In this document: positions 22,009 through 29,176 of the stretch, piece after piece | Numbering within the stretch: position 1 is the stretch's first letter | Layout of the letters: each line of letters opens with the position of its first letter | DNA from: Atractiella rhizophila | Lineage: Eukaryota | Direction: 5' to 3' | DNA length: 64,000 bases | NCBI GenBank assembly: GCA_021432655.1 | Contig: MU271359.1 | Coordinates: 1-64,000 of the forward strand | The notes under the pieces: generated by a model | What the model saw: only the letters and a program-made list of their open reading frames with translations | The model's database searches: none | Told to the model about the DNA's origin: nothing | Position numbers and translations under genes: made by a program

Positions 22009-24051
22009 ATGGAAGCAGTCGAAGCCTTGCTTGACGCCTCGCTCAAGAAGCCCACCAACGGCGTGCGTCCTCTCCTTTATACACCAACTGGGAAGTCACT
22101 GATGCAGTTCGCCACTCACGCAATGCAGGCTGAAAAATCTGCATCTGAGGATGTGGTTATGCGAACTCCCGACCGCGAGTCGCGCACCAGCAGTACCCGA
22201 CGAAGTAGGAGAGAGCGAAGTCGGAGCAGGGACAGGGATGGCGATCGCGAACGGAGGAGGGACAGGTCTCGTTCCCGCGACCGTGAGAGGGAGAGGAGGA
22301 GGAGACACCGTTCGAGGTCTCGCGATAGGTCGAGAGAGAGGGATAGGGATAGGGATAGGGATAGGAAGAGGCGAGATAGGAGTAGGGAAAGGAGGGAGAG
22401 ATATGAGAATTCGTCAGAGAAGGATAGACGGTACGCATTCCCTTCCCCTTGTATTTTGGTTGGGACTGTGGATGTTGATGGTGACATGTTCTATGGATAG
22501 AAGACGAGACTCTCGATCCCCTCCCCGTCGTCGTCGCTCCCCCCCTCCTCCTCAGCGCTCCCGTTCGCCTTCTCCTGCACGTTCCGAACGTGCTCCTTCA
22601 CCCAAGTGCGCTTCCTTCCATCTTCTTCCGGACCGACCATATGCTGACGTGCGGTGTTAGGTTGAGCGAGGAAGAAAGAGAGATGCGCTCCGTCTTCGTC
22701 TCTCAGCTGTCCGCTCGCGTCGGTGACAGGGAACTGGTCGCGTTCTTCAACTCTCAAGCTGGTGAGGTGCGAGAGGGAAGGGTGATTGTGGACCGCATTT
22801 CTCGACGTTCAAAGGGGTACACCTTTGGCATCTATCCCTTCTGTCTGTGGCTAATTGTTTCTTGTGTAGGGTCGCCTACGTCGAGTTCCGAGATGTGGAC
22901 ACAGTCTCGAAAGCTATCGGTCTCTCCGGTACCAAGTTGTTGGGCGTGCCAATCATTGTGCAGTACACTGAGGCAGAGAAAAACCGACAAGCTATGTTAG
23001 GTGGAGGAGCATGGAATCCACCGTTCGTCATCTATCCTTTTGCTCCCTCAGAAATATCAGACGCTGATTGATGATGTAATGGACTGGCAGGCTATACGTA
23101 GGATCACTCAATTTCCAACTCACAGATGCAGACATCAGAGCAGTGTTTCAACCTTTCGGTGCTATCGATTATGTGGATTTGCACAAGGATCCCATAACTG
23201 GCAAGTCGAAGGGATACGCCTTCGTCCAGTGCGTCGCACCTCATCTCTTCAAACACATAGGCTAATGGAGCCCGCTTTAGATTTCGCAAACTCGACGATG
23301 CGAAAACTGCGATGGAGAAAATGTCTGGCTTCCAGCTCGCAGGCAGAGCGATCAAGGTGACGCAGGTGCAAGAGAACAAGCCGCCGCCGAGTTATGGTGG
23401 AGGTGGAGGGGGTGGATTCAGAACAGATAGGGATTTGGATGACGGCATTGGTCAGTCTTCTGCCTTATACAGTCGCAATGAAGGACAGAAATGCTAACTG
23501 TCGTGTCTGTGGAACAATAGGCGGAAGTCTCAATAGTATATCGAGAATTGAGCTGATGCAGAAATTAGCAAGGAACGAAGGGAAGGTGGAAGTGCCGAAA
23601 GCTCCTCTGTACGTCACACACTCTGCTCTAAAATCTTGCTGACTATTCTTTGATGTGATTTATAGCGTCCGTCCCAACATCCCCACGGCCGTCTCACGCT
23701 GTATCGTTATGCGCAACGTGTTTAACCCTGCGGAAGAGACGGATCCGACCTGGGATGTGGACCTGAGAGATGACATCAGAGGAGAGTGTGAGAGCCAGTT
23801 TGGCAGGATTGTCGGCATCGTGGTGCAAAAGGAAAGCACACAGGTGCGCCTACACCTTCCTCCTTCTCTGCCCATTTTCGCAGAAAGTCCTAATATAATG
23901 TGCGGTACAGGGCGAAGTTTACATCAAGTTCGAAGAGACGGATGCGGCCCAGAAAGCCGTGCAGGGCTTGAGTGGGAGATATTTCGGGGGGAAACAGATC
24001 CAGACGGGCTTCATCAGCGATGCCATCTTCGACGCGAGTAATAGGAAGTAG
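22009..24051 (+). CDS. RBM39: RBM39/CAPER (CC1-like) splicing factor: RS domain, 2 RRMs and UHM
   Basis: RS/RD-rich N-terminus; [46 protein letters not shown] and [12 protein letters not shown] 24049-24051. Confidence 0.93.
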
Positions 24052-24735
24052 GGTTGAAAAGGAACAAGGTCGGAGAGAACGCTGTTTGGTGGATTTGGCC
24101 TAAAGGAGGATTAGACGTCGATTTCTCTGCGTTTCAGGTCGATGATGCATTCCATTAAGGAGGACGGAATCGAACGAAGGAATGTCTAACCGCAAGATCT
24201 CTGTCGACTTTTCCTTCCTGCTGCCTCATTCGTCTACTAGATCATCATACCCTCAATCGAATACTCACGAATCTCCATCTCATATTCTTCTTACTCGCTA
24301 TTTCTGCTATCCATGGACAACAAAGAACCGAACGAACTTGTATTTCTCAACTCAAAAAGAAGACTCGTGCTTCCCCATCTGACCCCATCTACTTAGGCTT
24401 CCCTCTCACCTCCTTCGATATTGTGGTGACCTTCGCTGGATTCATCTCCCTCCGTACGCCAATCACTACCTTATGGAAAAAGAAGGGCTTCTTGGCGTGA
24501 TGATTGATGGATTCAGTAGGCGTGAACCCGATTCTTCCCCCCTTGGATTTATGGCTCTCTATTATTCCTCAGTATGATAGTTGTAGTTTAAATACTCCTT
24601 ATTTAGTACTTAGCTATATACAACGGTTGGTAACTTTGCAATTTACGCGATGTCACCACCCGTATTCAAGGATTTTCACCCCTCAACATCGACAATGACT
24701 AGCCAGGGAAGAAACCGGTCGTGGAAATTGATTAT

Positions 24736-26833
24736 TCACAGAAGACCAGGAACTATCGCCTTCCTCTCAGCTGGCATTTGGGAGCCAAACTTCTCCTTAT
24801 ACCAAGCGTCTATTCCGTCCCATCAGATCAGTACCCAATCACGGCAAAGGGGGCGAGAGGATGCATACGAGTTTTGACTGCACGAGGTACCATTGTTCCG
24901 ATTTCAGCCCATACGAACAGCCAAGGGGGGCTATTGATCAAGAAAGAGAGGAGGGATGAGGTATCGATGGCTAAGCTAGAAGGGAGGAGAGTACGCTTGA
25001 AAGGGGTAGCAAGAAAGCTGAAGATGGTTCCTGCGGTGGAGCCTGTAGGGGGATGGTAAGGTGTCAAACTGGTACATGCGATGGCGAATCCAATCCATTC
25101 GACCCATTCGCAGAAGTATGCCGGGTTGCTGATCCCTCCAAAACCCTTGTCGAATAAGAACCCATGAGGGACTTCGTAGTGCCTTTTTTCACCCTCTTTT
25201 GGTTTCGGGCGATTCCTCCTTATCGAATAAAGGATCTCGTCATGAACAATGTTCCCGGCTAGGCCAATGGCCCAGAGGAAAATTCCTCCCCAGAACCCGA
25301 GTGGCCCTCCCCATCCCCTTCCTTGAAGCTGAACAGGCAACCGACCGCCAAGAAAACTTCCCATTAGGAAAGCGTTGAAAGTGTTGAAGAAGAGAGCAAC
25401 GACGACCACCACGACGTGCATGGGAGCGCGAGAAGGGTTTCGGAAACTTGAAATGACTGCTCGGTTAGCGTAGTGGATGAGGAAGAGACATGCGAGGAGG
25501 ACTCGAGGATACGGCAGAGCTTTTAGACGGGTAAGGGAAGGGTCGAGGAGGTCAGTGGTGCGTGTTGTAGATAGAGGAGGGGAGAGCGTTGAGAGGATGA
25601 GGAGGATGGGAGAGACGATTTCCATGCAGAACCATGCTGGGGTCCCTACGTTGGACTCTTAGAACCTAGTGATACGGGAAGGGGACGGAATAAACGAACC
25701 TGGCAGGCTGAATCCAGGACCTGATCCCTTGAAGAAGGAGCTGCCATACCTTCCGAATGGCGCCGCTGGAAAGAGGCAATCAACAGTTGCTCGACGTGGT
25801 TGTGATGCTCAAGCTTGGGAAGTATGAAATGTACAAGTTTGAGATTTGCTACGCTTTTGCGGTTTTCTTGTCTACGTAGCACTTGGGGCTTAATTTCTAC
25901 CCATTCTTTAGTCTATCAACCAAAGCTATTGTGCGATGACAACGCGAGGAAAGCGGCGCGTTGGTGAGGTCGGTTCCCAGAATCTGAGAGTGTAACGTAT
26001 TCATGATTCTCTCCTTCCCTCTTTGCACTACTGCGGTTGCATCCTAGTCGCATTGTGTAACGCAAGAAATACCCAATCAATCGGAAGAAGAGCAGAAGCA
26101 GTTTTTTTTGGCTCAAGGTCTGTCTCGTGTATCAAATAACATCTCACCATGTTGGAGGTGAAACAACAAAGGACACCTTTGCTCAGAATCACTCTGGGTG
26201 CAAAATTGGAGATATACCACTGCACGATTCTGAATGCTTATAACTGTCTTATCGTTAATGGGTTCTATAGACTTGCAGCCAAGATAAGACTGGTGCAGCT
26301 TATGCGACACTTCAGCTTATATACCTTCCCACTCATGCTCATTGGAAGTGGAAAGCCTCAAATCCGCACGCCTAACAAGCGTAATAACAAGCTGTGAATC
26401 ATATTTACAGAGCTGAACAGCTCAATCCATTGAGCGAGTTCCCGCGCATTGCGAGTCCTGCCACTTTCTCACGTATTGACGTGATCCTGCGGCAGCTGTT
26501 TCGAAGATCCATCATTCACAGAACTAAATGAAAAGACGAAAAAAGCAAAAAGCATTTTAAGGATCCACACACTTCCAATTCGGAATTCACGAATAGGTGT
26601 GGTAAGGTTATAAACCTCCAAAAGAGACAGGCAGCAACATGCTGAATACGTGAAGGCGTAGATGGAGCGCTACCGCTCAAGCAACCCATAACATGAATGG
26701 GACACTTACAAATATAGAATGTAACAGGTCCCAAGGCGGGAAATGCCTGGAAAATCTTGGAGAAGGCGGAATAGACTCCCTGTGTGCCGTATTGGCCTTG
26801 AAGAGCGCGGAGGACGTTGGAAAGAGTAGACAT
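24736..26833 (-). CDS. 3-oxo-5-alpha-steroid 4-dehydrogenase (SRD5A/DET2-like)
   Basis: Exon 1 (26833-26710, ..GPVTFYI) joins across a 944-nt intron to SAPFGRY. AWFCMEIVSP, HYANRA, GNIVHDEIL, YEVPHGFLF, PAYFCEWVEW, T|HAWYKEKF and RKAIVPGLL-TGA. Confidence 0.9.
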
Positions 26834-26984
26834 CGGCTGCTACCGCGAGTGCGTTCTGATTGATGACTGCTAACGGCTGAAAGGAATTGACTCGTTCTTC
26901 AGGGAAGTGTTCACTTGTGACGATGACAAACCATCCGTGAGAAAACATTTCAGATTATCAGTACCGGCAAGTCTCTACTTAGGA

Positions 26985-27064
26985 GAAGCAGTGGCCGAGT
27001 GGTCTAAGGCGGAGGATTTAAGTCCCTCTACGAAAGTGCGTGGGTTCGAACCCCACCTGCTTCA
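26985..27064 (+). tRNA. tRNA-Leu(UAA), intronless
   Basis: Acceptor stem GAAGCAG/CTGCTTC+A; D arm GCCGAGTGGTCTAAGGC; loop TT-TAA-GT; long variable arm TACGAAAGTG; T loop GGTTCGAACC; followed by a T-run terminator. Confidence 0.95.
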
Positions 27065-29176
27065 TTTTGTTTTTATCTTCTGCTTTGTGTGTCACTGAAC
27101 AATATGTTTTCCCTCCAACATCAGCGCGAGGTAATGCCTGAGGCGACCTACGTCATCCTCATATCCAACTTTTTACTCACAGCAGTTCTCACATGCTGTC
27201 TTTGTGATGGGCTTTGAATTACTGCCAGTGAGCAGCTATGTATTGATGGGGTATAAAGTGTCGGCAATGCCGTCCAACATGACCTGACGAAAGGGCAAAG
27301 AATAGAAACATCGGGAAGTCGAGTAGATACTAACTATCCAATGGCTCATTCGTGGCTTGGAACTAATCGTTCGATGGTGATGGCAAGCAGTAAAATCGAT
27401 TGATATATCCGTTTTCTTTCTTTGGAAGTGAGGATACTTGAGTGCTTTAGAACTCGGACTTCCCACTCCTGAAAGTCATTTCGATCATCCTGAGGAAGAT
27501 GTCAGGAGTCGGCTGACGGCTGACAAGGCATATGAACGCGCATCCAGAATTCCTTTCCGCTCTTCCAGAATGCAGGAAACACGGCGGGTTCTGTTCAACA
27601 CTGTCCAATCTCGCGATCTCGCAATTGCAATTGGAGAATTGAGACGGGCTTACGACCGGCAGTGTGTATCTATTGACACGGATTGACAGATGGATCAATC
27701 GTTTGAAAAATGGGACTCGCACTTAAAATATCCGCCTGGCCACCTCACCTCCCCCTCCCCTGATCCTCCAGCATCATCAGCAGTAAGATAACCCAACCCA
27801 AAGGTTCCGTTCCGCTGCGGCCGACCGGACAGCGACTTGAACAAAGACCGACTCTAGCCGAACAACAACGACGACTTTTAGAACCTGTGCCTTCAACCCT
27901 TTCGTGGGTCACGATAAGTACATCAAAGTTGGGTAATTACAGGTAGTTAGGAGGACGATAAAGAATGGTGAGTCCTTTCGTCAGTAGTGCTGGCTACTGT
28001 TGCCGCTTGGCTGAACAAAGCTGTTCCGATCGCAATCTTGGATGCTGATTGGATTTTCATGATTTCTTCGCTCTCGCAAAGCGTGAGACTGTGCGCCGAT
28101 ATGTTACTTGTGTCCCTCTTATTCGCCATTTAAATCCTTTCGCTGAACGCACTTTCAAGCCGTTGCTGAGTGGGTTCTTGATGCAGTCGTTTTGTTCTCA
28201 TCAACAGCTGAGACCTGCATGATGTGCCCTCTATTTCCCTCGATCGTTTGTACCGATGTACTAATCGCACTCTTCATCTCCCTCTGCTTTTGGGAGAGGG
28301 GAAGAGGAGTCTATTCAAAGATAAAATTAGAATTGGTTAAGGCTCCAAGCTGTCCAGCTGTGCTACGACTCTTGCTCTCCCAAAATCTTCTTCAGGTTCT
28401 ATTCGTTCTCTGATGTTAGGCCGATAACAAGCTATTTGTGTCCTGGTCGGATGATCAAGCAGACACACGCACCTGTCTTGACTGGTCGCGATTCTGATTT
28501 ACTGACTCATTGTTCCTTTACATCTTCGGTTTGTCGCTGCTGAAAGGCTGGAGAGGAATCGCTCCTGATCGGCGAATATGATCTCGTGTCGCGCAGCCCC
28601 TAACGAAATCGATGATGTTATAAGGGTCATTCGAGGATCTTGCTTCTGGAAGATGATTCCACGTTTCCATGGAGGTTCGCGAATGTGCGGCGACAAGCGT
28701 TCCTTCGTGATGAACTTCACGAGTCTATGTTATAGTCACATACGGCAATACAGCTCCTCACCGTTCTTGCCTCCTGACTAAGCCCATGATCTACACTTGG
28801 GACTCTCTACACTTCTGTGGTCAGAAGGAATAAGACCAATGTCGCCTGTTTTATATTTCTGGGAAGCGGGCAGTGGTTTGTAGCTGTTGCTACCGGAGGA
28901 ACACTGCGCCAGTAACTCCAAATCCAAGAGCGGAGAACGTGCGAAGATCACGAATTTGCCTGAGACGAGACTTCTTGTTCATCACTGCCGGTCAAGGTAA
29001 GCGGAGACCTCGTCAAGAGGCTTATCGCCGGTCTGCTCTCTAAACAGCCTAAACATGGAGGAGCAGTGTTCATTCTTTTTTATGATAGTAACCACCATCA
29101 GAGTAGTATTTCAACCATTGCCTTGCTCCTGGCACAGAAGCTGTGGTTCGCGTTAATACTTTTTTGAATCTGGAAG

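Follow-up and report, generated by a model that had tools for sequence, protein, structure and literature searches.

The 944-nt first intron of an SRD5A-like gene in Atractiella rhizophila: very probably an ordinary spliceosomal intron with background hairpins

A steroid 5-alpha-reductase-like (SRD5A-like) gene of the fungus Atractiella rhizophila is interrupted early in its reading frame by an intron of 944 nt, which is genuine, correctly spliced, and already annotated in the public gene model. We regard this first intron (intron 1) as very probably an ordinary, long, and fast-evolving spliceosomal intron and not a structured noncoding RNA. It would be a U2-type GT..AG intron in phase 1, lying at codons 41/42 of a gene for a membrane protein, and the spliceosome would remove it in one step, using a consensus GTAAGT as donor and a pyrimidine-rich ...CAG as acceptor. 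Its length would stem from past insertion or expansion of DNA that is now unrecognisable, and it presumably carries no RNA-level function of its own. An earlier interpretation, made from the letters of the DNA and here called the sequence-only reading, had noticed that short hairpins tile the intron and had proposed either a large structured noncoding RNA or a folded insertion tolerated by the spliceosome. The significance of the present result reaches little beyond annotation: the long first intron of the public model is correct and is spliced in two independent RNA data sets, and a set of 7-10 bp stems in about 1 kb, however striking to the eye, is what chance alone leads one to expect. All positions refer to the window, the whole stretch of 64,000 nt that was analysed, and the features of the gene are collected in Table 1.

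The host gene and the splicing of its first intron

The identification of the host as a steroid 5-alpha-reductase gene is confirmed, as it belongs to the 3-oxo-5-alpha-steroid 4-dehydrogenase family (SRD5A-like, PF02544). The largest exon, compared as 24831-25658 (minus strand), matches the hypothetical protein BT69DRAFT_1333014 of Atractiella rhizophila (P0001, 346 aa) with 98% identity (E 3e-171), and the next-best protein matches are basidiomycete 3-oxo-5-alpha-steroid 4-dehydrogenase-domain proteins with 34-44% identity. Precomputed domain calls place PF02544 on P0001 and on all other 44 protein matches. These matches mark the window as Atractiella DNA (Pucciniomycotina), of a strain or haplotype that departs slightly from the public one. 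Splicing at 26710/25765, 25700/25645, and 24869/24809 gives a product of 346 aa, 341 of which are identical to P0001. At the junction of exons 1 and 2 the join codon T|CG encodes Ser, resulting in ...TFYISAPFGRY..., and P0001 runs uninterrupted over this junction (...PVTFYISAPFGRYG...). In 11 relatives the N-terminal hydrophobic segment aligns with exon 1 as far as an I-[N/D/S]-APFGR motif. RNA contigs of data sets X4 (26710-26784) and X5 (26710-26843) cover the exon.

Table 1. Features of the SRD5A-like gene and its first intron (window positions)
Feature	Position	Strand	Remarks and basis
Exon 1, coding part	26710..26833	-	ATG 26833-26831; 41 codons + 1 nt; N-terminal hydrophobic segment
Intron 1	25766..26709	-	944 nt; U2-type GT..AG, phase 1; RNA joints
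5' splice site GTAAGT	26704..26709	-	sequence
End helix, 5' arm GUUGCUUGA	26685-26677	-	intron positions 25-33
Cluster of short palindromes	26392..26521	both strands fold	130 nt; closed by 8-11 bp inverted repeat; best-folding part of the intron
End helix, 3' arm UCGAGCAAC	25794-25786	-	intron positions 916-924; 5 nt upstream of the putative branch point
Putative branch-point motif UUGAU	25779..25783	-	A = intron position 930, 15 nt from the 3' end
Pyrimidine-rich tail and 3' splice site (..UGCCUCUUUCCAG)	25766..25778	-	sequence
Exon 2	25700..25765	-	66 nt; contains APFGRYGSSFFKGSGPGFSLPG; sequence, RNA contigs, relatives' alignment
Intron 2	25646..25699	-	54 nt; joint in X3 and X4
Exon 3	24869..25645	-	777 nt; main body of the 3-oxo-5-alpha-steroid 4-dehydrogenase domain
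Intron 3	24810..24868	-	59 nt; joint in X3
Exon 4, coding part	24736..24809	-	stop codon 24736-24738; from the spliced 346-aa model

The sequence-only reading had joined exons 1 and 2 in frame across the 944 nt, and the RNA junction, P0001, and the 346-aa model all bear this out. The 26710/25765 junction, for which it had proposed a search in RNA, is present in contigs of both X3 and X4. Public-run contigs were compared over positions 23500-28500, where an X3 joint (25765->26710, depth 67.1) skips 944 nt with CT..AC ends on the plus strand, equal to GT..AG on the minus strand. The same joint in X4 has a depth of 4.29 and 67 letters on its shorter side. X4 is a metatranscriptome on record, the kind of X3 is unrecorded, and the two come from different samples. 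A second X3 allele shows the same junction, there as 25763->26710 with AG between, and one X5 contig ends at 26710 with 8 loose letters that match exon 2 except one. A 199-nt X4 contig reads from exon 1 through exon 2 into exon 3, so that no internal exon lies within the 944 nt; extra internal exons in transcripts were one outcome that the sequence-only reading had counted against its own proposal. Spliced GT..AG/CT..AC joints in X3 cover all three introns of the SRD5A-like gene and both of its convergent neighbour.

In its GTAAGT donor, pyrimidine-rich CAG acceptor (...TTCCAG, last base 25766), one-step removal, restored frame, and use of the same junction in both alleles, intron 1 is like the regular U2-type introns of basidiomycetes. 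It is unlike the regular introns beside it in two respects. Those with RNA support measure 57, 67, 59, and 54 nt, making intron 1 about 15 times longer; this local norm omits two joints of the next gene (52 and 134 nt) that have non-canonical ends or replaced letters. The 15-fold excess counts against a plain ordinary-intron reading. Moreover, the CTRAY motif is absent from the last 45 nt of intron 1, where UUGAU is the sole branch-like motif, whereas in three of the four neighbouring introns CTGAC, CTAAT, or CTGAT stands 17-27 nt before the 3' end. CTRAY is also missing from intron 2 of the same gene. Nested or recursive splicing was considered and set aside, the sole internal donor being a GTGTGT at 26572 that is used by no RNA joint.

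Intron content, haplotypes, and relatives

The intron is AT-richer, with a GC content of 44.6%. The covariance-model search suggested by the sequence-only reading, run with Rfam at E<=10 over 24500-27500, found no family in the intron, the sole match being a tRNA at 26985-27064. None of 15 stop-to-stop ORFs in the intron reaches the Pfam cut-off (the best has E 0.051 and 13.7 bits, the cut-off being 29.4). When compared by BLASTN with the 64-kb window, the intron finds itself and otherwise only matches of at most 24 nt (E>=0.6). A repeat search over 25300-27200 returned direct and inverted pairs of 11-17 nt only, with no terminal repeat at the intron ends, and there is no target-site duplication at the borders, as had been noted before. 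The only tandem repeat inside the intron is a 15-nt AAAAAGC x2 tract, and the only 11-nt inverted repeat (26392-402/26511-21) has unlike flanks.

Comparison with the DNA contigs of X1, for which 8 of 65 pieces are listed, indicates that a second haplotype differs strongly within the intron. Among the pieces listed, one at 26306-26551 has 17 other letters and 2 gap letters over 246 nt, and one at 26339-26586 has 14 other letters and 10 gap letters; the exon pieces differ at 3/292 and 3/443 letters, and those outside the SRD5A-like gene at 8 letters plus 3 gap letters over 699 nt and at 11 plus 6 over 678 nt. The intron holds at least five small indels, and loose contig ends at 26195 and 26285 suggest a stretch too divergent to align. 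Such divergence is how unconstrained DNA looks, and as part of the ordinary-intron reading the interior is very probably unique, non-coding DNA under little or no constraint. The depth of X1 was rejected as evidence on copy number: values in the intron (146-490) are close to those on either side of it (168-498), but such depth does not measure the number of copies.

The position of intron 1 was also compared among relatives. The loci available were in metagenome contigs (n=24), encode proteins of 30-43% identity, and include none that is Atractiella-like. An AP[FY]G[RK] motif is present in 8 of the 24, and in all eight the frame is unbroken for 22-52 residues upstream; in the other 16 the motif was not within the DNA compared. 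The position of intron 1 is therefore not common to these distant relatives, and judging from these alignments the intron may have been gained in the Atractiella line or, alternatively, lost in the others. Among the papers listed on the Atractiella genome, none appears from its title or abstract to deal with intron structure.

Hairpins, fold energy, and rival readings

The eight helices listed by the sequence-only reading do exist. All pair on the minus strand, with lengths of 9, 7, 7, 10, 8, 8, 9, and 8 bp and one G-U in each of four. The list consists of a helix between the two intron ends (9/9 bp, one G-U) and seven interior helices (25847-53/25875-81, 25940-46/25957-63, 26009-18/26083-92, 26183-90/26226-33, 26246-53/26283-90, 26325-33/26347-55, and 26392-99/26514-21), and the stretches 26420-35 and 26469-84 are each a self-hairpin. 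Their number, however, is not beyond chance. Stems were counted as maximal ungapped stems of at least 7 bp with at most one G-U and a span of at most 140 nt, taken greedily and without overlap. By this count the intron has 10 stems (79 bp) on the minus strand and 13 (99 bp) on the plus strand, compared with 12.1±2.4 in 200 dinucleotide shuffles (177/200 reach 10) and 10.6±2.5 in 268 window tiles of 944 nt (176/268 reach 10). At 8 bp or more the minus strand has 6 stems, a number reached by 61/200 shuffles (mean 4.4±1.9) and 41/268 tiles, and at 9 bp or more it has 2, against 1.3±1.1 in shuffles (70/200). The short hairpins of intron 1 are the background of any 944-nt sequence of like composition. 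With more stems and a comparable z on the opposite strand, the claim that the pre-mRNA strand is favoured by its G-U wobbles does not hold.

Fold energy leads to a similar picture. The minimum free energy (MFE) of the whole intron is -271.8 kcal/mol on the minus strand and -265.1 kcal/mol on the plus strand, with z of -1.14 and -1.86, respectively, against 20 shuffles and of -1.83 (4/60 as good) and -1.49 (5/60 as good) against 60. When MFE is regressed on GC over 66 other 944-nt tiles, the minus strand lies 1.28 sd below expectation (6/66 as low) and the plus strand 0.75 sd below (18/66). In 120-nt windows the mean z is -0.84 (minus) and -0.41 (plus) within the intron and +0.23 and +0.12 in the mostly coding DNA on either side; the most extreme single values, -4.03 inside the intron and -4.23 outside, are both on the plus strand. 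These window means, like the slight advantage of the whole intron over its shuffles (z about -1 to -2), count against a pure-chance reading. The sequence-only reading had called for z on both strands and had taken a value near zero with no strand bias to speak against it; the weak z and the lack of pre-mRNA strand bias come close to that outcome.

The part that folds best is the 130-nt cluster at 26392-26521, with a z of -3.22 on the minus strand (0/200 shuffles as good) and -2.55 on the plus strand, and this result counts against a reading by chance only. Of 496 other elements of the window chosen in a like manner (closing stem of at least 8 bp, span 90-170), 30 match or exceed the fold of its minus strand and 71 that of its plus strand.

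Three functional readings of these structures can be weighed against the ordinary-intron reading. That the whole intron is a large structured noncoding RNA, a tiled hairpin array functional after or during splicing, seems to us to have the faintest of chances. It can draw on the reality of the listed stems, on mean pair probabilities of 0.33-0.92 for five of the seven interior stems in the full-intron ensemble, and on a whole-intron z of -1.1 to -1.8 on the RNA strand, but two listed stems have pair probabilities of 0.009 and 0.001, the stem count falls below the shuffle mean, more stems occur on the non-transcribed strand (at a similar z, -1.5 to -1.9), and 6 of 66 window tiles are as stable once GC content is allowed for. 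Neither fold energy nor stem counts leave the range of shuffles and of other window DNA, no Rfam family matches in the intron, and haplotype divergence inside it is high and indel-rich. RNA cover within the intron is also slight: X4 and X5 have no contigs there and X3 next to none (one among the X3 pieces listed, 26262-26495, depth 2.28), although absent cover is not evidence of absence, and the libraries may miss small RNAs. [quoted passage not shown] This mechanism is established for RPS17B and is widespread in yeast introns, according to the available text of PMC12350175 and PMC2536676. The end helix is like the S. cerevisiae zipper stems of the RPS17B type in being a stem of at least 6 bp in a long intron, just downstream of the 5' splice site (24 nt from the intron 5' end) and immediately ahead of the putative branch point. 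Nevertheless, a helix of at least 9 bp with at most one G-U between the first and last 60 nt arises by chance in 65/1000 shuffles (6.5%) and 34/536 tiles. The full-length ensemble gives the end helix a pair probability of about 0.002, since each arm pairs with nearby sequence instead, and this is unlike the high helix confidence of zipper stems. It also ends 5 nt from the putative branch A with a linker of 29 nt in total, too near, if that A is the branch point, for the steric limits given in the available text of PMC12350175. We hold this role to be very unlikely.

The third of these readings confines function to the closed element at 26392-26521, as a small non-polyadenylated RNA (e.g., snoRNA-like) hosted by the intron. 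The box C/D snoRNA consensus has a C box RUGAUGA and a D box CUGA next to the terminal stem. Like intron-encoded box C/D snoRNAs, the element is an intronic stretch of about 130 nt with a terminal closing stem (8-11 bp), the flanks inside of which, AUGAUGG and AUGA, loosely resemble the C and D boxes, and its z on the RNA strand is equalled by no shuffle. Unlike them, it has no canonical C box (there is no TGATGA on either intron strand), no CUGA beside the 3' stem arm, and no Rfam match at E<=10. The plus strand folds well too, as expected of DNA palindromes; the element is unexceptional among those chosen by the same rule; and in the full intron its closing stem forms with a pair probability of 0.001. 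The second-haplotype pieces here are the most divergent among those listed, and one of the intron's small indels, an A inserted behind 26470, lies within one arm of the 26469-84 hairpin. Taken together, these points make a small RNA highly improbable.

It is also possible, though unlikely, that a mobile element (introner-like, MITE/foldback, or solo LTR), perhaps one inserted upstream of the nearby tRNA-Leu gene, makes up the intron or once enlarged it. Retroelements target tRNA genes in yeast, and here a Pol III gene (tRNA-Leu) lies 276 nt from the intron 5' end. A length about 15 times the local norm would fit such an origin, and so would the absence of the site from all 8 motif-bearing relatives, which may mark a lineage-specific gain. 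Against it stand the lack of terminal inverted or direct repeats at the intron ends and of a target-site duplication, the unlike flanks of the 11-nt inverted repeat, and the absence of a protein remnant, of a second copy in 64 kb, and of excess fold stability. An insertion tolerated by the spliceosome, as the sequence-only reading had proposed, may account for the origin of the intron, though nothing positive speaks for it: terminal repeats, a target-site duplication, a protein remnant, and a second copy in 64 kb are all absent. The available text of PMC3609843 describes introner-like elements (ILEs) as longer than regular introns and as decaying beyond recognition, and those of Dothideomycete fungi as having hundreds of near-identical copies and markedly stable predicted folds. 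Intron 1 is like the ILEs of that text in its length, its canonical splice signals, and a possibly lineage-specific gain; it is unlike them in having a fold stability at background level and no second copy within the 64-kb window. A more specific version, in which a non-autonomous element that is not recognised as such recently created or expanded the intron in the Atractiella lineage upstream of the tRNA gene, with 26392-26521 as the remnant of its ends or as the source of a small intronic RNA, is very improbable indeed. If true, it would put introner-type intron birth in Pucciniomycotina.

Neighbouring features

The tRNA-Leu(UAA) gene (26985-27064, plus strand) is recognised by Rfam (53.3 bits) and ARAGORN, is divergent from the SRD5A-like gene, and lies about 150 nt upstream of its ATG; the long intron occupies the stretch 276-1219 nt upstream of the tRNA 5' end. 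Just upstream of the ATG, X1 contigs skip 26839-26939 (101 nt) and 26914-26966 (53 nt), so that indels seem to be present in the 5' UTR or promoter of the SRD5A-like gene on the second haplotype. An X3 RNA contig is unlike the window over the 54 letters that follow 26871. A 12-nt direct repeat (11/12) pairs 25764-25775, in the 3' splice site region, with 26815-26826, in exon 1 near the ATG, at a spacing of 1051 nt, and is probably due to chance. In the next gene upstream (27488-27723, minus strand), one X3 joint skips 52 nt with CC..CG ends and another skips 134 nt with 29 other letters between, which points to allelic replacement rather than an intron.

The convergent neighbour gene (23520-24660, plus strand) has two RNA-supported introns of 57 and 67 nt. 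Its C-terminal exon gives the impression, from its translation, of an RRM/UHM-type RNA-binding domain and may be splicing-factor-like. Between the two convergent genes, outside the intron, lies the strongest local fold of the 3 kb scanned (24560-24679; z -4.23 on the plus strand and -2.80 on the minus strand), which is near the stop codon of the SRD5A-like gene and may be a shared 3'-end hairpin.
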